64,000 nt of DNA from positions 94,860,001 to 94,924,000 of the forward strand of contig CM069132.1 in NCBI GenBank assembly GCA_035221665.1. Direction: 5' to 3'. The stretch is from Okamejei kenojei. Its lineage: Eukaryota. The translations under genes and the position numbers were made by a program. Positions 232 through 60,279 of the stretch are shown piece by piece (the stretch's first letter is position 1; every line of letters starts with the position of its first letter). A model generated the notes under the pieces. The model was given only the letters and a program-made list of their open reading frames with translations. It did not search any database and was not told the origin of the DNA.

Positions 232-1642
232 ATTTTACTTCGGAGTCACGTGAGTGACTACGTGAATAGAAGCCCGTACAGCCGTTGGTGCGTCATGACA
301 TCAGACGTTGGTGCAGTCGGCCGGTTGGAGCAGCAGCGCTCCTCCAATCGGTAAGTTTAAACGGAGGTAAGGTTTTAAAATTTTTTTTACCACAGATCAT
401 TTTCTGCGACGGTTTGGAATTCTTGTAGATATGTTGCAGAAAGTGAAGAAGGTGTCGGCGAGGCGCTCCGGGGGTAGAAAGGAAAAGTGGCCAGGAGAGT
501 GTTGAGGATGGAGGCCCGTCTGGTACACCTGGTCCGGTGCTGGCTACACAGCCAGTGGTTGCGGACCCACTGCCGGGGGGCAGTGGAGGCTTGCCAGTAG
601 GGCGGAAGGCCACTGACAAGTCTCTGTGGCCCGTAGATGAGTCGGGCCTGGAGGTTCTACCCTCCATAGGAGAGTCCGTTTGCTCACGGCTCTCCCACGT
701 CGAGATTTTATTACAAAAGAATGCTCGACAGGGACCAGCTCCGTGAGGAGGAGTGGTGCCCAAGCCAGGCTGATGGTGAGCTTTTGCTAGCAGCACCTGT
801 TTCAGGGCTGCAGAACTATCCTGCCTGTGAGGAGGATGTTCTATCAGTGCAGTTTGCTGACACTGATTCTATCCTGGGGAGAGCAGTAAAGGAGTTCGGT
901 TGGAGGTAATTCCGAACATTGCTGGGAAGTTTGCTGAGCCTAGAGAGGCAGGAGAGGCGATTGATGTAGAATTGGCTGAAGCAATTCAGTATATGCTCTC
1001 CCACCAGTTACATGAGCTAGCTATGGATGTAATAGCAAAAAAACTATAAAGCTCCTGTTGATTGTGATCCTCTGAAGGTACCGGTGATTAATCACCAAAT
1101 TTGGTCACAGATGGGTATGCCTGCTAGGGCCCAGGAGATGAAGTTTCAAAAAAGTGCTTAAACTGTTGTCAGCAGGTATTACAGCTGTGGTGAAAGTTAT
1201 TGATACAAGCAATATGGTTGAAGCACACCAGGACGAACTGGGATTCCTTTGTAATGCATTTTTGAAATTAATAATATCAGGAGGGCCGCTATTAGGCCAG
1301 TGCTAATCCGAATTTAGCGAGTTTGTGCAAACCGACCAGTGTACCACCACGAAATCTGTTGTTTAGTGGTAACCTTGCCAAAAGGGTCAAAGACTGTCAT
1401 GAGGTTGTTAAAACCATGGCCCTCATTAAGCCGGCTGGCAAGCAAGGCAAAAAGGTTTCTCTACAAGAGGTCGAGGACAACAAGGTCCACAAGGAAAGAT
1501 GCAGGTAAGGAATATAACATTGACAGACGATGAATTAACTGATGTTCCTGTTCAAATTGGGGAAGGTTAAAATTGTTTCTCAAACAATGGCAGCAGTTGA
1601 CATCAGATTTGTTCATACTTAGTAGTATTGAAGGGGTGAAAA

Positions 1643-2638
1643 TTGAATTTTACTCTAAGGACAGTCTACCTAATCAACATTTTCCTAGTCGTAAACTTAT
1701 TTTTTCAGATGAGGAAAATGTGCTTATTCAAGCAGAGAGGGGTAATTGAGCCTTCTGTCTATCAAAGTCAACAATTTCTGTCAAGTATATTTCCCAGATC
1801 TAAAAAGACTGGGGGATGTAGAATTATTCTGGATTTATCGAGTTTGAACAAATTTGTTTGTTATAGGCATTTCAAAATGGAGACCTTTACCACGGCCAAA
1901 CATCTAGTGTCCAAAGGGTGTTATATGGCAACCATTGATTTAAAGAATGCGTATTACTCAGTGTCTATTCATGGTGATGATAGAAGATATTTGAAATTTA
2001 TTTGGATGACTCAGCTGTGGCAATTCAGGGCATTGCCGAATGGATTAACTTCAGCTGTTAGATTATTTACTAAATTGGTAAAACCTGTGTTAGCATTACT
2101 TAGAGCTCAGGGGCATGTGGTAATGGCCTATTTAGATGATATTCTGATTGTTGGAAAGACTCATGCTGAAACTCAATCATCAGTTTCAGTTGTTAAAATC
2201 ACTTTTGAACAAATGGGATTTATTATTCACCCAGATAAATCTAAATTATCACCAGTCCAAATTATTGATTATCTGGGATTTAACATTAATTCCAATCACA
2301 TGTTGGTAACTTTGCCCAGGGATAAATTGAATCAGTTAATTGAGGACTGTGTTAATCTCGTTGGAGAACAACGGCCTTCGATTAGACAAGTAGCCAGTTT
2401 AATTGGGAAGTTTGTTGCATCATTTCCAGCTGTGCAGTATGGTTCTCTGCATTATCAACAATTACAACGATCAAAGGAACAGGCACTGAGAATACAAAGG
2501 GGCCATTTTGATAGGCCTATGCAGTTGTCAGCTGGGGCGATTGCTGACATACAATGGTGGATAGTACATGTTTCAAAAAGTTTTAGGAAGGTTTTGGTGG
2601 GGATCAACATCCTTTACATGATCGTATTGATCTGTTAA
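1643..2638 (+). CDS. DIRS reverse transcriptase (C-terminally truncated)
   Basis: Motifs KKTGGCRIILDL, HFKME, IDLKNAYY, LPNGL and YLDD (about 2129-2140). The ORF stops where copy 2 continues into RNase H. Confidence 0.9.
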   Translation: MNFTLRTVYLINIFLVVNLFFQMRKMCLFKQRGVIEPSVYQSQQFLSSIFPRSKKTGGCRIILDLSSLNKFVCYRHFKMETFTTAKHLVSKGCYMATIDLKNAYYSVSIHGDDRRYLKFIWMTQLWQFRALPNGLTSAVRLFTKLVKPVLALLRAQGHVVMAYLDDILIVGKTHAETQSSVSVVKITFEQMGFIIHPDKSKLSPVQIIDYLGFNINSNHMLVTLPRDKLNQLIEDCVNLVGEQRPSIRQVASLIGKFVASFPAVQYGSLHYQQLQRSKEQALRIQRGHFDRPMQLSAGAIADIQWWIVHVSKSFRKVLVGINILYMIVLIC

Positions 2639-2639
2639 T

Positions 2640-3682
2640 TTGCAGATTTTAAGGAGGCCATACCTGGGGAGAGGACTGTCTCATCGGACTGTGGATGTTC
2701 TCACGTCGGCCTGCAGGGATAGTACACAGCAGCAATATATCACCTATATAAGGAAGTGGGAGCAATTCTGCCTACAGCAGAATATTGTATATCACACTGC
2801 AGGGATCACGGACGTATTGGAGTTTTGTCAACTCTTTATTTCGACCAAAAATTAAGTTACAGTGCGATTAATTCAGCCAGAAGTGCTCTGTCTTCTTATT
2901 TACCTATGAATGCAGAATTGCATACAGTAGGGACACATCCGTTAGTTTCACGATTCATGAAGGGAGTTTTCAATTCTAATCCCCCTAAACCCAGGAATGC
3001 CGGTATTTGGAATGTGAGTGAGGTTCTTATGGTTCTTCGCCAGTGGGCTCCGGTTACAAGCCTATCTATAGCCAAATTAACTATGAAGGTGGTCATGCTT
3101 ATGGCGTTGGTTTCAGCTCAACGTGTACAAACGTTGCAAAAGCTACGGCTAGATAGAATGCATGTGTCGGCAGATGCCATTATATTTTATGTCTATGATT
3201 TGCTTAAACATAATAGAAGAGGCATGACAGGATGTAAGATTGTGTTTTCAGCATACCCCGCAGATGATCGCTTGTGTGTAGTCTCACATTTATCACGTTA
3301 CATTGAGATTACTAAACCTCTGAGAGGAACAGAGTTGGCTTTGTTTATTAGTCACAAAAAACCACACAGTAAGGTGTCGGTGCAAACGATTTCAAGGTGG
3401 CTAAAGCAGGTCCTGGCAAGTGCAGGAATTGATACTGATAAATTCAAATCTCAATCCACCAGGGCGGCATCAACTTCCGCGGCAAGGGCGATGGACTTGC
3501 CAATAGACCATATCCTCGCGGCCGCAGGATGGTCCAGTGAGCTAACTTTTCAGAGGTTTTATCACAAGCCGATTTCAAGGCTCGGGGTGTTTGCTGATTC
3601 TGGTGTCAGTACTGTTATAGTTTCCCCTGAGTTAGAGGGGTTTCTTATGATTTTGTTTGTAAATAAACTGTTATTCGTTTAA
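2640..3682 (+). pseudogene. DIRS tyrosine recombinase (frameshift near 2825)
   Basis: ORFs 2640-2855 and 2756-3682 carry SYSAINSARSALS, LVSAQRVQTL, QSTRAASTS and AAGWSSELTFQRFY (catalytic Tyr region). Confidence 0.9.
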
Positions 3683-5157: not shown

Positions 5158-5984
5158 TAGATACTGTAGCAGTTCTATATTCTGATAATGAAAATTTCAA
5201 ACCACTCCTACAAAGTATGCATAAAATTGCCAAGATTGAGGGTGGGGATTACCAATTACCTGCTGTATGAATAAATCTTACATTTATTTTTAATGTTGTT
5301 TCTGAGATGGATTGCTCGCGTTCCACGTCCTTTCAAATATAAAATAACCAGACTAAGTCACTGCACTGCTGAACATCTGGGCAACAGGCAATGCTGATGT
5401 GGTTAAAAATTACCATAACGTATCCATTAAAAATTACATAACGTATATCAATGCAGCATTTGTGTAATTTTTGTATCATTTTAATGTGATTAGCCGAGAT
5501 ATATTCCCACTAACGAAACATCATTAATCTTTTCAGATAAGAAATCGGTTAAATATTAAATTGAATGAGAGTGCATGCCTATGTTGTAGGCAAAAGAAAA
5601 GTGAGGGCTAATAACTAGTAAATAGGGATATAGATTGTGCTAATGTGGTGACAGGGAACAGCAGATAAAGCCTAAAAGTAGAGATATGGAATGCAGCAGT
5701 GACGACACCCAAATTTCAGGAACTTCATTGATTATGTTATAGCGTGCATAGCGTGCACCTATCGTTGTAACAGAATGGATCTATTGTCAACTAATTTAGA
5801 TTTGTTTTCTGTATCCTCCATTCTGTAATCAAATTGTTAAAATACTTTTATTGAATTGAATTGAATTGAATTTATTAGCCATTTAAAAAAAAATTGAACA
5901 AAATGTCGTTACCATACAGTTATAACAATAAAAAGCAAACAAAACACACCATTACATACATTTAACATAAACATCCATCACAGT

Positions 5985-6135
5985 TCGTTCACTCATGTGT
6001 CAGATGACGTATATCTCGCTGTTGGCTTCTGTAGTCATTCATCATGTTGACAGAATTGGTTGCCCGACGCGTCACAGAGTGCATCGTGTCATTGTTTACG
6101 GGGATCACTACGAGGAGGCTTCTGTCATGATCCCC
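5985..6135 (-). mobile_element. 151-bp retroposed element headed by an HDV-like ribozyme
   Basis: 11-bp TSD TCCATCACAGT (5974-5984 and 6136-6146). The minus-strand 5' end folds as an HDV-type pseudoknot. Confidence 0.8.
6048..6135 (-). ncRNA. HDV-like self-cleaving ribozyme (predicted, 88 nt, with P4)
   Basis: P1 GGGGAUC/GAUCCCC; P2 UGACAGAA/UUCUGUCA; P3 GCC/AGU (one mismatch); L3 UCCUCGU; GU; P4 stem CGAUGC/GCGUCG; J4/2 CCAA. Confidence 0.8.
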
Positions 6136-6442
6136 TCCATCACAGTGACTCTCCTCCAGGCATCTCCTCGCTGTCATTGAAGGTAAAAAACGTCTTATCC
6201 CTTCCCTGCTTCTTCTCCCGCGGTCAGGCAGTCAAACTGCTGCGTCGCGGGTCCTGATATTGAAGCACCCTCTGGGCCATGGAAGATCTCACAGCCAAGC
6301 CACGCCGGGCGATGAAAGGTCCTGTGAACGGGCCGATTCAAGCCTTGCGATGTGCGGTGGATGACGCTGCTGTGGCTGGAGTCCCCGAAGAGTTGGTCGC
6401 CAACCAGCGATACGACACGGTGAAAAAGTTGCATCTCCGTTG

Positions 6443-13940: not shown

Positions 13941-13994
13941 GGGGTGGAAGATTGCAACCTTCACGTGGTCTGCCCTGTTTCAACGAATGCAATC
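13941..13994 (+). ncRNA. Minimal (P4-less) HDV-like ribozyme, 54 nt (predicted)
   Basis: P1 GGGGUGG/CUGCCCU with G1.U; P2 GAUUGCA/UGCAAUC; P3 ACC/GGU; L3 UUCACGU; GU; J4/2 CGAA (candidate catalytic C at 13984). Confidence 0.85.
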
Positions 13995-14080
13995 AGCCCG
14001 GCATGCACAATCAAATAAGATCAAACAGAACAAGTTGTCCTCCAACTTTAGGCTGTGCACACCATATGCAAGAAGAAGAC
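13941..14080 (+). mobile_element. 140-bp SINE-like element headed by a minimal HDV/CPEB3-like ribozyme, with an (AAG)n tail
   Basis: 9-bp TSD AAATTATGT (13932-13940, 14081-14089) and 3' end CCATATGCAAGAAGAAGAC. No tRNA A/B boxes seen. Confidence 0.85.
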
Positions 14081-39498: not shown

Positions 39499-41952
39499 AG
39501 GCTCTGTCTCACCAGCATGCAACTGCATGCGACTAGCCCGACAAAATCGGAAGCGGGGGTCGTGTGGAGGTCGTGCGATCCCCGAGTGAGTTGACGAGAA
39601 GTTCGTGCGAAGTCCGAGGGAAGGTTGCGCGTGACGTAATTTTTCCTCATATAAACGGGGCTGCAGGCTGCTTGCTATTCCATGATCATCATGGAAAAGG
39701 CACAGAAACAGATACAGATTGCATTGCTGCAACAGCAAGAGAGGCTTCTGTTAGCAGCAGCCCTCATGCTGGCAGGTCAGCTGGGCAGGAGTTCGACAAG
39801 GAGTTCAACAAGGAAGGCTATGAAGAAACCCAGGAAGAGGTCTGCGGGGTGAGGTCTTTGTTCCGGATGAGACCCACTTTGGGCCAGTATGAGAACATGG
39901 TGACCGATCTGCAGCAGAAAGATGAGGCTGCCTTTAGAAATTTCACCAGGTTACCCCCTGACCTGTTTCAGGAGCTAGAGACACGAGTTGGACCTCTTCT
40001 GCAGAAAAGAGACACCGTCATGCGGAAGTCACTGGAACCAGGCCTGCGCCTAGCCATCACCCTCCGCTACCTTGCGTCAGGGGATTCCTACAAGAGCCTC
40101 TCGTACAACTTCCGTGTGGCTCACAACACCATCAGCAAGGTCGTCCGAGAGACCTGTGATGCCATCAACAATGCATATGAAGAAATGATTGACTGCCCTA
40201 GTACACCTGATGAGTGGAGGAGAGTGGCGCATGGCTTTCAAACCAGATGGAACTTCCGCACACATGTGGGGGCAGTTGACGGGAAGCATATGGCCATCCG
40301 GTGTCCACCCAGGGGAGGTTCTACGTACTTTAACTACAAGAAGTTCCATTCCATCGTGCTGTTAGCCTGTGGTCGATGCAAAAACTACAACTTGCTGTTT
40401 GTGAATGTGGCACACCTGGCAGTGCCGCAGATGGAGGGATCTGGATAGAGACCTCCCTTGGGCAAGCACTGGAAGAAGGGAGAGCAGGCCTTCCCTGATC
40501 CAGTACCTCTACCGGGAGAAGACAATCCTGACATCCCCTACGCATTGGTTGGTGATGATGCTTCGCACTCAGGCCATGGATGATGAAGCCATACCCTCAC
40601 AGGCAGATGTCTAGGGAGCAAAGGATCTTTAATTACAGGCTGTCCAGGTCTAGGAGGGTCGTGGAAAATGCTTTTGGTATCCTTGCTAGCAGATTCAGAT
40701 TCCTGCTGACTACAATGGAGCAGGAGCCCAAGACTGTGCAGACCATTGTCTACGCGGTATGCGTCCTCCACAACCTGATCCGCACCAGAGGTGCAGCAGC
40801 AGCCATGGTGGAGGGTGACACAATGGACAAACAGACAGGCGAAGTCACACCAGGTTCTTGGAGAGATGCAAGACAGGCTGCACCGATGGTGGCACTAGGT
40901 GCATTGCAAGGAAACACCAGCAACAAAAAGAGCAAAGGAGCAGAGGGACCATCTCTCGTGCTTACTACAACTCCGAGCGAGGCAGTGTACCCTGGCAGAA
41001 CACTATGTGGTGAGGATCAAAAGCAAACATCCCACACCACAGAGGACCACCACTGCAGGAACTGATCTAATAAAAGGAGGATCTATGTACGTTAATGGAA
41101 GGTTTTTGTATGTGAAATTGAGTAATGAGTTAATACTGTGATAAATAAAAAAATAATATCTCACACATCGCACATTGTACTTTCTTTGAAATGTCATAAT
41201 TTAAAAGCGATAAATGCATTCGTCTGCTTTACATGACGTCTCATGACACTCTTTGCAATTCAATGCAATTCAATGCCGGTGTGTGTTTCATTTATCTAAT
41301 AAAGCGTGGATTTATATGTGAGATGCATTCCATTATTAGACGTGGTTTCCATATGAGAGATCAACTCCATGATTAACAACTGCTTTTCCCACTACACGAA
41401 AAGGTTACACTGAAAGTTTAATAATCAAGTTGTGTGTGAGGTTATCCTCCGATAAAGACAAAGACCCTTGACTTTATAAGAATCAATTCCTTTATTTAGT
41501 GCAAACAAACATGATCCTGGGGTTCCTTGTTCTCCTCATGTTCTCTGGAGTTCGATGCAGCTGGGAAGAACTCCGTTACAAGAAACGCGGTAAGTGGTGG
41601 TTCTTTTCAAAACGCGCGCGTTTTTTTGTGTCGCGGTAAAGGCGGGCCGACTAATAATGCGCAACGCATGGCGTCGGGCAGTGACGTCATCGCGCAACGC
41701 CATGCGGACGACGCACGATGTCAAGACGTTACTCGCGTCCTCGATGCGGCTGCGGCCGACAGGATTTTGCCGCGTGGGATTTTTGAACAGTGTCGGTTTT
41801 TCGGAGCTCCGCTCGATGTCGGCACCAGCTCTGCACAACTCCACGCGGCTCCGGCGATCAAAGTGGGACCGGCCCCGCGACGCCGGACGGCTCAAGTGAC
41901 CACGTTAGGTCGCGCTCATCGCATGGAGTTGCATACTGCTGGGACAGGCCCG
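39499..41952 (+). mobile_element. PIF/Harbinger DNA transposon (transposase only)
   Basis: 33-bp terminal inverted repeats (27/33 match; GGCTCTGTCTCACCAGCATGCAAC... vs ...GTTGCATACTGCTGGGACAGGCCC). TTA TSD at 39496-39498 and 41953-41955. Confidence 0.93.
39691..41010 (+). pseudogene. Harbinger DDE transposase (frameshifted)
   Basis: FRNFTRL, RLAITLRYLASG, GAVDGKH, YFNYKKFHSIVLLA and FNYRLSRSRRVVENAFGILASRF. Confidence 0.9.
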
Positions 41953-42779: not shown

Positions 42780-45000
42780 AGTGTTTCTGCTGCATCTGTT
42801 GAATGTCCTTCATTATTCACTAATTTATCCTCCAAGTGCAAGCCAATTGCTACAAAATTAAGACACTTTAGTAAAGATGATAGGAACTTTATCAACACAG
42901 AAGTAACTAATCTTTTACAAGAAGGTATCATAGAACCCAGTTCTTCCCCTTGGAGGGCACAAGTCGTCGTGGTTAAGGACCCCTTGGAGAGACATAGAAA
43001 ATACTCTGCATTGATTACTCTCAAACTATAAACCAGTTCACGGACCTTGATGTATACCCACTACCTCGAATAGAAGAGATTATCAATACGTTAGCTAAGT
43101 ATAAGATATTCTCTACTTTTGACTTAAAAAGTGCTTACTACCAAATTCCTTTGAAGGAATCAGAGAAGGAATACACTGCGTTTGAAGCAAATGGGAAATT
43201 ATATCACTACTCCAGGGTTCCTTTTGGTGTAACTAATGGTGTGGCTGTTTTTCAGAGAGAGATGGACAAACTTGTTGAACAGGAAAACCTTAAAGATACT
43301 TTCCCTTATCTTGATAATATAACTATTGCAGAAAAAGACCAAGCTGAACATGATGAAAATGTACAACGGTTTTGGATGTTGTACATTCTAAAAATCTAAC
43401 ATTAAATGAGGCTAAGTCAATAACATCAGTGTCATCAATTAATATTCTTGGTTATTGGGTTGGAAATGATGTAATCAAGCCTGATCCAGAAAGACTCCGC
43501 CCACTCCAAGAGATACCTGTTCCAGTTACATTAAACTCTCTACGAAGGGTCCTTGGGGTGTTTGCATATTATGCAAAATGGATACCAAATTTTTCTGACA
43601 AAATTCAGCCTTTGATTAGAGCAAAATCTTTCCCCCTTGACTCTACAGCAATTGGTGCTTTTACTTCTTTAAGGAAACAATTGGAATCTGCGACATTACA
43701 CGCCATCGACGAGGATCTCCCCTTTGTTGTTGAATGTGATGCCTCTGATTTAGCAGTATCAGCAACATTAAATCAAGGAGGACGACCAGTGGCTTTCATG
43801 TCTCGTACTCTCCAAGGTAGTGAATTGCACTACCCACCCGTCGAAAAGGAAGCTACAGCAATTATTGAAGCAGTGAGGAAATTGAGTCATTTCCTTGCTC
43901 ACCAGCACTTCACTTTGATAACAGATCAGCGTTCAGTAGCTTTTATGCTGGAAAATCGGAAACGAACGAAGATTAAGAACAGTAAAGTTCATGAATGGAG
44001 GATTGAATTATCTGCATATAGTTATTCAATTGAGTACCGCCCTGGTAAGGATAATGTTGCTCTGGATACATTAACCCGAGCATTTTGTGCCTCTGTTCAT
44101 TCTTCTGCACTCACTGATCTTCACAATGGGCTGTGTCATCCTGGAGTCACTCGTTTGTTACACTATGTTCGTTCCAAAAACTTACCTTTCTCTACAGAAG
44201 ATGTGAAGATGACGTGTGCTTCATGTAGAATCTGTGCTGAATTAAAACCAAGGTTCTTCCATCCTGAAGAAGGAAGATTGATCAAAGCTACTCAACCTAT
44301 GGAACGTTTGAGTATTGACTTCAAAGGGCCTTTACCATCCTCCTCTCGAAATGTTTATATACTCACCTTAGTTGACGAATATTCGAGGTTCCCATTTGCT
44401 TTTCCTTGTCCAAATATGTCAGCTGCTATGGTTATCAAATGTTTAGATCAACTATTTTCATTCTGTGGATTTCCAAGTTACATACATTCTGATAGGGGCA
44501 CCTCATTCATGTCAAAAGTTTTAAAGGACTACCTTTCTAAGAGCAACAAGTAAAACAACACCATATCATCCTTTTGGAAATGGTCAGGTTGAGAGGTATA
44601 ACGGAATCATTTGGAAAGCAGTGAAACTGGCTTTAAAGTCAAATGACATACCAGATCAGCATCGGGAATGTGTTCTACCAGATGCATTACACTCCATCAG
44701 ATCTTACTGTCAACTGCTTTCAATACTACTCCACATGAGCGGTTCTTTAACTTCAAACGGCGTTCTTCTAGTGGTACTTCTCTGCCATCATGGTTGACTA
44801 GCCCTGGGCCTGTGTTGCCTCTTCGTTATGTCCGATTAAATAAGAACGAGCCTTTTGTTGATGAAGTTGAACTGACTGATGTCAACCCTTCTTATGCAAC
44901 TATAAAGTATCAGGATGGATGCCAGTCAACTGTCTCACTTCGTGACCTTGCACCATGTCAGTCTTCTCCATCAGCTCCGTCACTTCTTGATCACACTAAT
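42780..45000 (+). pseudogene. Gypsy pol: RT, RNase H and integrase (frameshifts and stops)
   Basis: PSSSPWRAQ, DLKSAYYQ, PFGVTN, YLDN; ECDASD, EKEATA, TDQRS; HNGLCHPG...CRIC, IDFKGP, SDRG. Confidence 0.95.
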
Positions 45001-59770: not shown

Positions 59771-59864
59771 ATCGCTCCTCGGCCTTTTGGCTAAGATCAA
59801 GTGTAGTATCTGTTCTTATCAGTTTAATACCTGATACGTCCCTTATCTAGTGACCAAAGCATTG
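59771..59864 (+). pseudogene. RNU2: 3'-truncated U2 snRNA retrocopy
   Basis: ATCGCTCCTCGGCCTTTTGGCTAAGATCAAGTGTAGTATCTGTTCTTATCAGTTTAATACCTGATACGTCC matches the U2 5' end from nt 1. TSD ACACGC at 59765-59770 and 59865-59870. Confidence 0.93.
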
Positions 59865-60279
59865 ACACGCTCCAATGCACACCCCAAACAGGGCCAGGAG
59901 ACTGAGGAACCCAGCAACCATGGAAGTACAAGTACTGGACTAGTCCAGGATATATCCTCTAGAGATCAGTCACCGGTCGGGGGTAGGTTGCAATTGTTCT
60001 ATGATGCATGGTGCTGCATAACATCAGATCTATCCATACTGGACTGTATCCGGGGGTATCTAATCAAGTTTATCTTGGAAGTATATCCACCCGTACCAAA
60101 TACACCTAGTCGGGTATTGGGTTTTCAATACCAGAAACTCTACAGGTGAATGATGAAATTGGAATATTATTCCAAAAGGGGTAATTGAAAGGACGGCATA
60201 TCAGCCTCAACAATTTGTGTCCAATATATTCCCCAGGCAAAAGAAGGATGGTGGGTGTCAAGCCATTCTGGACCTAACC

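Follow-up and report, generated by a model that had tools for sequence, protein, structure and literature searches.

The 151-bp minus-strand insert analyzed here, located in a 64-kb window of genomic DNA (the whole stretch that was analyzed), is a non-autonomous bipartite retroposon of a described kind, composed of the two ends of a LINE; the family to which it belongs is termed family A. We are fairly confident that it derives from a LINE, likely of the Vingi clade, that lost its middle part, that its predicted self-cleavage would set the 5' end of its RNA, that the two RNA ends likely pair with each other, and that it would be copied in trans by the protein of the parent element. The case carries the established combination of ribozyme and LINE 3' end over to a vertebrate family of the Vingi type, for which the parent could be named and the breakpoint mapped. 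The features on which this reading is based are compiled in Table 1.

Table 1. Features of the family A insert, its surroundings and the family B element (window positions; nt, position in the element)
Feature	Position	Strand	Remark
Host repeat receiving the family A insert	5880..6300 (at least)	-	1,454 first-look candidates; unclassified
TSD copy, element's 5' side	6136..6146	.	single in 14/14 other host-repeat copies
TSD copy, element's 3' side	5974..5984	.	direct sequence and host-repeat comparison
Family A short retroposon, 151 bp	5985..6135	-	decayed copy; internal deletion of Vingi-type LINE
Predicted HDV-like ribozyme (nt 1-88)	6048..6135	-	predicted cleavage 5' of 6135
P1 (nt 1-7/30-36)	6135-6129 with 6106-6100	-	helix reading
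P2 5' strand (nt 9-16)	6127-6120	-	partner nt 81-88
P3 (nt 17-19/27-29)	6119-6117 with 6109-6107	-	C.A mismatch and G.U in window copy
L3, 7 nt	6116-6110	-	
J1/4 (nt 37-38)	6098..6099	-	majority GG, window copy GU
P4 region, 38 nt (nt 39-76)	6060..6097	-	includes a stem of 6 bp (nt 50-55/66-71)
J4/2	6059-6056	-	predicted catalytic C (C77) at 6059
P2 3' strand (nt 81-88)	6055-6048	-	
Start of parent LINE ORF	6011..6047	-	AUG at 6045 (nt 91, third base after P2)
End-stem 5' arm	6044-6033	-	
Deletion junction (nt 125/126)	6010..6011	-	about 1 nt microhomology; LINE 5' part/3' part
Parent LINE 3' end	5985..6010	-	15-nt trailer and GAAC-type tail
End-stem 3' arm	6009-5998	-	
Parent ORF stop codon (nt 134-136)	6002-6000	-	
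Family B short retroposon	13941..14080	+	minimal HDV-like head, own end stem, AAG tail

Insertion site and copies of family A

The initial annotation had described an insert of 151 bp bounded by a perfect 11-bp duplication, and comparison with the host repeat bears this out. Each of the 14 other host-repeat copies read has the 11-mer once, with the downstream flank immediately behind it, as in an empty site. The 11-mer flanking the insert on both sides therefore represents a genuine target-site duplication (TSD), and the element ends exactly at 5985. Among 87 family A copies starting at G1, TSDs were detected in 54, and 39 of these 54 are 11–12 bp long. They mostly open with A-C-pyrimidine preceded by a pyrimidine-rich stretch, in line with the target profile of the 87 copies (A at position -11 in 63%, pyrimidine-rich sequence just upstream). 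The base before G1 in the same 87 copies is T in 55% and G in 9%; this bias may reflect either a preference in top-strand cutting or a link to the ribozyme -1 position.

In the genome of 2.76 Gb, whose repeats resemble those of a cartilaginous fish, family A yielded 1,143 first-look candidates, so that the insert is a multi-copy element, as a retroposed family should be. All 40 scored matches were near full length, the 39 others being 87–91% identical to the window copy. The perfect 38-nt core occurs 48 times in the genome and is present in 3 of 30 copies chosen by their 3' end, which translates into about 500 copies, an estimate with a wide margin and a downward bias; a copy number on the order of a thousand seems reasonable. 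Uniformity of the 5' ends, likewise anticipated for such a family, was evident among 30 copies (including the window copy) that had been selected solely by their 3' 66 nt. At least 7 of the first 8 nt agree in 27 of them; in one copy about 5 nt are missing at the start, and another has no ribozyme. Such a uniform start does not in itself call for a ribozyme, since a template of 151 nt is easily copied in full.

Relative to the family majority, the least changed of 73 near-full copies already differ at 3–6 sites (median 10), for which reason we regard family A as old and probably extinct. It is present in public sequencing runs of at least seven organisms. Contigs from other organisms display the 5' boundary, with unrelated sequence before nt 1, and none of them shows a transcript end or a junction between family A and the LINE. 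In two family A copies lying 11 kb apart (L272 and L273, G000:C28), the same T-rich insert interrupts the element after about nt 85; the flanks of the two copies are identical, and the pair is a local duplication. We also considered a SINE headed by tRNA, 5S or 7SL sequences, and discarded it because simple patterns for Pol III A and B boxes found neither in the family A majority and Rfam matched no small-RNA head.

The window holds further mobile sequences, all on the plus strand: frames for a reverse transcriptase (RT) and a tyrosine recombinase, as in DIRS-type elements (1640-3682), a Harbinger-like DDE_Tnp_4 transposase fragment (40559-41062) and the broken pol (RT, RNase H and integrase) of an LTR retrotransposon (42998-44550). 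A truncated U2 snRNA copy (95 bits) is found at 59771-59887, also on the plus strand. No host exon was recognized among the 25 of 74 long frames that were scanned in the window.

A predicted HDV-like fold at the 5' end

Read from the first base of the insert, all parts of an HDV-like ribozyme (P1, P2, P3, L3, J1/4, P4, and J4/2) are found in the sequence in the helix order that had been assigned to it. The descriptor scan proposed in the initial annotation, here tolerating one mismatch in P1 and one in P3, matched the 64-kb window exactly twice, namely at the insert (6135-5985) and at 13941, and returned no match in 20 simulated 64-kb sequences of equal dinucleotide content. Hallmarks of HDV-like ribozymes are a catalytic C in J4/2, a U and a G in L3, and the P1.1 pairs, and the family A majority has them all. 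The Rfam search of family A gave a match to the CPEB3 ribozyme (RF00622) below the cut-off of 35 bits, with 21.0 bits for the window copy and 22.6 bits for copy L028. Nested folding of nt 1-86 was not significant (z -1.1), the method being unable to score pseudoknots, and the fold of the P4 region is weak (z +0.6 in a near-majority copy).

The window copy deviates from the family majority at 14 positions, 9 of them at CpG sites. Three of the changes are lesions of the core: G27A, which creates the C.A mismatch in P3 already suspected of impairing this copy, C29U, which leaves a G.U pair in P3, and G38U, by which one P1.1 pair is lost. C77 is kept. With these lesions, the window copy probably cleaves poorly or not at all.

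In the family A majority, a 10-nt direct repeat links the head to downstream sequence (nt 10-19 and 103-112; window 6126-6117 and 6033-6024, minus strand). It arises from an A-to-G change at nt 107 peculiar to the short element and has decayed in the window copy. Its second copy might serve as an off-switch by competing for the 3' strand of P2.

Covariation of the helices had been named as a further check, and the outcome differs by level. In an alignment of 24 family A copies, 95.5% of cells pair under the structure versus 30–46% for slid controls, and no covariation beyond that of shuffles was seen. Non-CpG changes occur in the stems (47/1,064) and in P4 (31/676) such that the stems show no excess conservation, CpG sites change in 15–19%, and only 4 of the 30 copies chosen by their 3' end retain an intact core. 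The sequence pattern is that of neutral decay from one master copy, and covariation within family A can therefore neither confirm nor refute the fold. Between families, the helices appear to covary: in families a, b, c, f, and g, and in the short elements A and B, P1, P2, and P3 differ in sequence yet pair, and the C in J4/2 is kept, on a plain reading of the descriptor output. The descriptor gave no head in four decayed LINE copies (L334, L329, L315, and L322).

Related heads also occur outside this genome. From a metagenome set of 80 loci, 15 reach near the ORF start; 6 of these gave a descriptor head (three belonging to the same element), and one more head, that of L344, was read by eye. 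Four distinct metagenome relatives share the HDV-like fold. Both head and 3' end are available in L346 and L344 only; L339, which has no recognizable head, was left unscored. The head of L346 (L346:3261-3344) scores 55.6 bits against RF00622, above the cut-off, and the family b heads (L283, L284, and L304) reach 25–29 bits. The mammalian CPEB3 ribozyme shares its fold with family A, which scores 21–23 bits, but is single-copy, intronic and immobile, whereas family A is mobile. The Vingi heads amount to a naturally occurring collection of HDV-like ribozyme variants, of which some come very near the CPEB3 ribozyme. As a separate observation, two RTE families (L151:1619-1770, L155, L174, and L185) carry HDV-like heads with P4 regions of about 90 nt.

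The second descriptor match, at 13941, had been taken for a separate family, and it is indeed one, derived from a LINE of its own. Family B (4,118 first-look candidates) has an HDV-like head of 54 nt with a P4 region of 5 nt and matches both ends of a second Vingi-type cluster (L316), while a stretch of about 17 nt in its middle has no counterpart at either end of L316.

A different role of the family A head has to be weighed. Its main function may be that of an internal RNA polymerase II promoter, of a protective fold at the 5' end or of a protein-binding site, with cleavage being vestigial or dispensable for spread. In the trypanosome elements L1Tc/NARTc, the same 77 nt (Pr77/L1TcRz) are promoter and ribozyme (PMC3383444), and the uniform 5' ends of family A suit either model. 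However, in all seven families whose head could be read, the double-pseudoknot order and the J4/2 C are retained despite differing helices, and a DNA promoter needs neither; the lack of Pol III boxes in the family A majority likewise does not favor a promoter. We consider it unlikely that such a function is the main one, bearing in mind that promoter and ribozyme roles are compatible.

The parent LINE and the internal deletion

An autonomous LINE having both ends in common with the insert, postulated at the outset, is present in the same genome. Vingi-type families were located with a short endonuclease motif; used as a search query, it gave 45 matches versus none for a control, mostly LINEs in which a compact HDV-like head immediately precedes the ORF. 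Starting from the closest of them, a protein search together with 55 fetched loci resolved at least eight clusters. The parent cluster comprises eight loci and has nt 1-125 and the final 26 nt in common with the element. The family majority agrees with the LINE 5' end at 108 of 125 positions in L334 and at 107 of 118 in L329, and the last 26 nt match at 22–24 positions in all five LINE copies compared. What the short element lacks is a middle part of about 2.6 kb in the LINE copies read. In L329, the reading frame opened by the AUG at nt 91 is that of the endonuclease and is interrupted by one stop, which is absent from L334 and L300. G1 is the first base of both L334 and L309, each of which has a TSD of its own, and L334 extends from end to end. 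In L309 (L309:891-3756), a Vingi-type copy of the family A parent, nt 57 is joined directly to ORF sequence, with loss of the P2 3' strand and the 5' arm; this apparently represents a second internal deletion that was not amplified.

The LINE itself yielded 336 first-look candidates. All copies read are broken and measure 2.7–2.9 kb. Among LINE 3' loci, 20 of 20 read share the same tail, and in 15 the match extends no more than 1.5 kb upstream, the pattern that 5' truncation would leave. Short copies carry G96 in 80 of 87 and G107 in 82 of 87 cases, whereas three of three LINE copies have A at both positions; these diagnostic sites indicate that the short form was amplified as a family of its own, from its own master copy. 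None of the 48 exact matches to the 38-nt core, all of which were read, continues into the LINE, and several are interrupted or cut short.

With respect to its proteins, fragments of the parent match Exo_endo_phos and RVT_1 in Pfam. No RNase H match was obtained in fragments spanning the RT to the C terminus, nor among the precomputed domains of any of the 120 homologues listed; close homologues are mostly 900–1,050 amino acids long and have the same domains. The Vingi clade is described as lacking RNase H (PMC13708176). The compact arrangement of an apurinic endonuclease (APE) and RT in the absence of RNase H, together with the same head geometry at the 5' end of Vingi-2_Gav, makes it likely that the parent belongs to the Vingi clade. 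No named Vingi protein appeared among the PDB matches, which were distant R2 proteins only, or among the homologue names.

An origin from, or mobilization by, an RTE-clade LINE deserves mention because RTE elements have bipartite derivatives and ribozymes of this type (PMC5786205); in addition, two RTE families of this genome have large HDV-like heads, and the tail of family A is a tandem repeat. Queries with PF20049 and an RTE endonuclease gave four RTE families, but none has either family A end beyond chance or shares ends with A or B, and the parent RT scores 44–45 bits against RTE loci compared with 115–328 bits against other Vingi-type loci. Judged by these four families, we hold this origin to be highly improbable and retain the Vingi-type parent. 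In a separate search with PF14529, all 30 loci read belonged to one unrelated LINE family, which we take to be I/Nimb-like, and it was set aside as parent. This family (L217, G000:C2:28228257) has many near-identical copies and one open frame of 1,276 amino acids, and looks recently active.

Bipartite non-autonomous LINEs have been described for RTE, Ingi, Vingi, and R2, and the ribozyme was suggested as the reason why they retain the 5' end; Vingi is missing from the ribozyme-bearing clades listed in that article (PMC5786205). The Vingi derivatives described there (Vingi-1_EE, SINE2-1_ACar/Vingi-2_ACar, and SINE2-1_AMi/Vingi-2_Gav; Kojima 2018, PMC5786205) resemble family A in consisting just of both ends of a compact APE and RT LINE without RNase H. 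By our reading of the printed sequence, the 5' end of Vingi-2_Gav has the same helix lengths and P2 core as family A (PMC5786205). A difference is that family A has no tRNA head. Vingi is reported from amniotes and insects (PMC5753468, PMC3391268).

NARTc/RIME of trypanosomes and the R2 SIDEs are proven examples of such elements (PMC3383444, PMC4035085, PMC3414825, PMC6765202). NARTc/RIME have the first ~77 nt and the last ~30 nt in common with their LINE and are bipartite like family A (PMC3383444, PMC4035085), and the HDV-like ribozyme of NARTc/L1Tc cleaves at +1 (PMC3383444). The L1Tc parent encodes RNase H and ends in poly(A), in contrast to the parent of family A with its GAAC-type tail, lack of RNase H and vertebrate host; the 5' part of family A includes the first codons, unlike that of NARTc/RIME, and ribozyme activity is proven there but predicted here. 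The R2 SIDEs of Drosophila likewise combine a 5' ribozyme with the LINE 3' end by internal deletion and are mobilized in trans (PMC3414825). R2 is specific for 28S rDNA and uses a restriction-like endonuclease, whereas family A is dispersed, has a weak target preference and an APE partner.

Complementarity of the two RNA ends and its possible meaning

In short family A copies, nt 92-103 pair with nt 127-138 (z -2.5 in L028; the stem is lost in the window copy), and family B keeps a closed end stem of its own (z -2.4). In the parent LINE, the arms of the family A stem are the first codons on one side and the last codons plus stop on the other, about 2.6 kb apart. To compare families, the 35 nt after P2 were matched with the 35 nt before the tail in a matrix of seven families, with family d (5' end absent) and the singletons L305, L312, and L328 excluded; all seven stem from one genome, and the ranks ignore kinship. 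Of the 5,040 ways to assign 5' to 3' arms, the correct one scores best, and it does so again among 120 when A and B, the families in which the pairing was first seen, are omitted. The first rank holds at windows of 20, 25, 35, and 50 nt, whereas control windows moved inward by 60–400 nt rank 492–4,612.

Tests of single elements gave a less even picture. In 9 of 12 cases the 5' arm ranked among the best 3% of body windows, the exceptions being L316 (family B) and L310 and L323 (family g); in L300, pairing of the 3' arm is weak. Of the two metagenome elements, L346 shows the pairing (17 of 586 windows score as well), whereas in L344 it is absent (414 of 573). RTE controls gave 17/591, 90/819, and 33/570 windows as good, moderate scores that may mean either a weaker RTE version of the pairing or a lenient test. 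Taken together, the sequences show a family-specific 5'/3' complementarity of the ends across seven Vingi-type families, with uneven support.

This complementarity need not be a protein signal. It could instead guide RT jumps across the loop and thereby produce deletions, or it could be a by-product of composition or ancestry. In family A, the deletion junction falls on the inner edge of the 3' arm, the single-copy results are mixed (L344 negative, RTE controls partly positive), and the origin of all seven paired families from a single genome suits the by-product reading. On the other hand, the arms vary between families yet match their own partner only, and L346, from an unrelated metagenome, pairs as well. 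Moreover, coding sequence extends into both arms in family A, an indication that the full-length element is under selection, and a pure deletion hotspot would not be selected. We thus view an origin without signal function as possible, if somewhat doubtful.

The most likely course of events is as follows. A master copy would have been transcribed from an upstream host promoter, and the ribozyme would have cut 5' of G1, freeing the RNA with a defined 5' end from the read-through transcript. The freed RNA may then have folded its end stem, likely part of the recognition signal for the parent LINE protein, which would have bound the RNA 3' end and nicked DNA at pyrimidine-rich/A-C-Y sites. Target-primed reverse transcription could have been primed where the GAAC-type tail meets A-C at the nick, and staggered cutting would have given rise to the 11–12-bp duplications.

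Extending this to the clade, we tentatively propose, at what we see as slightly less than an even chance, that Vingi-type RNAs are closed end-to-end, with the 5' end set by the self-cutting ribozyme and a covarying, family-specific stem between the bases directly following the ribozyme and those directly preceding the tail, about 3 kb apart, serving as the cis signal for the protein. A search of the openly accessible literature retrieved no description of 5'/3' pairing in Vingi RNA, of a Vingi ribozyme, or of family A. The end pairing is possibly the new part, and family A itself may already be catalogued in Repbase or Dfam.

Why few LINE clades produce bipartite derivatives is posed as an open point in PMC5786205. 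If functional, the end pairing would provide an answer, as end-to-end closure would explain why Vingi-type LINEs readily yield minis that retain both ends. A practical aspect concerns Vingi-1, which already serves for gene insertion with RNA alone, the templates having a native UTR on either side (PMC13708176). As these templates carry both UTRs, a rule of matching ends would bear on their design, and a natural mini-element of about 150 nt would then represent a minimal template design for Vingi-based gene writing.
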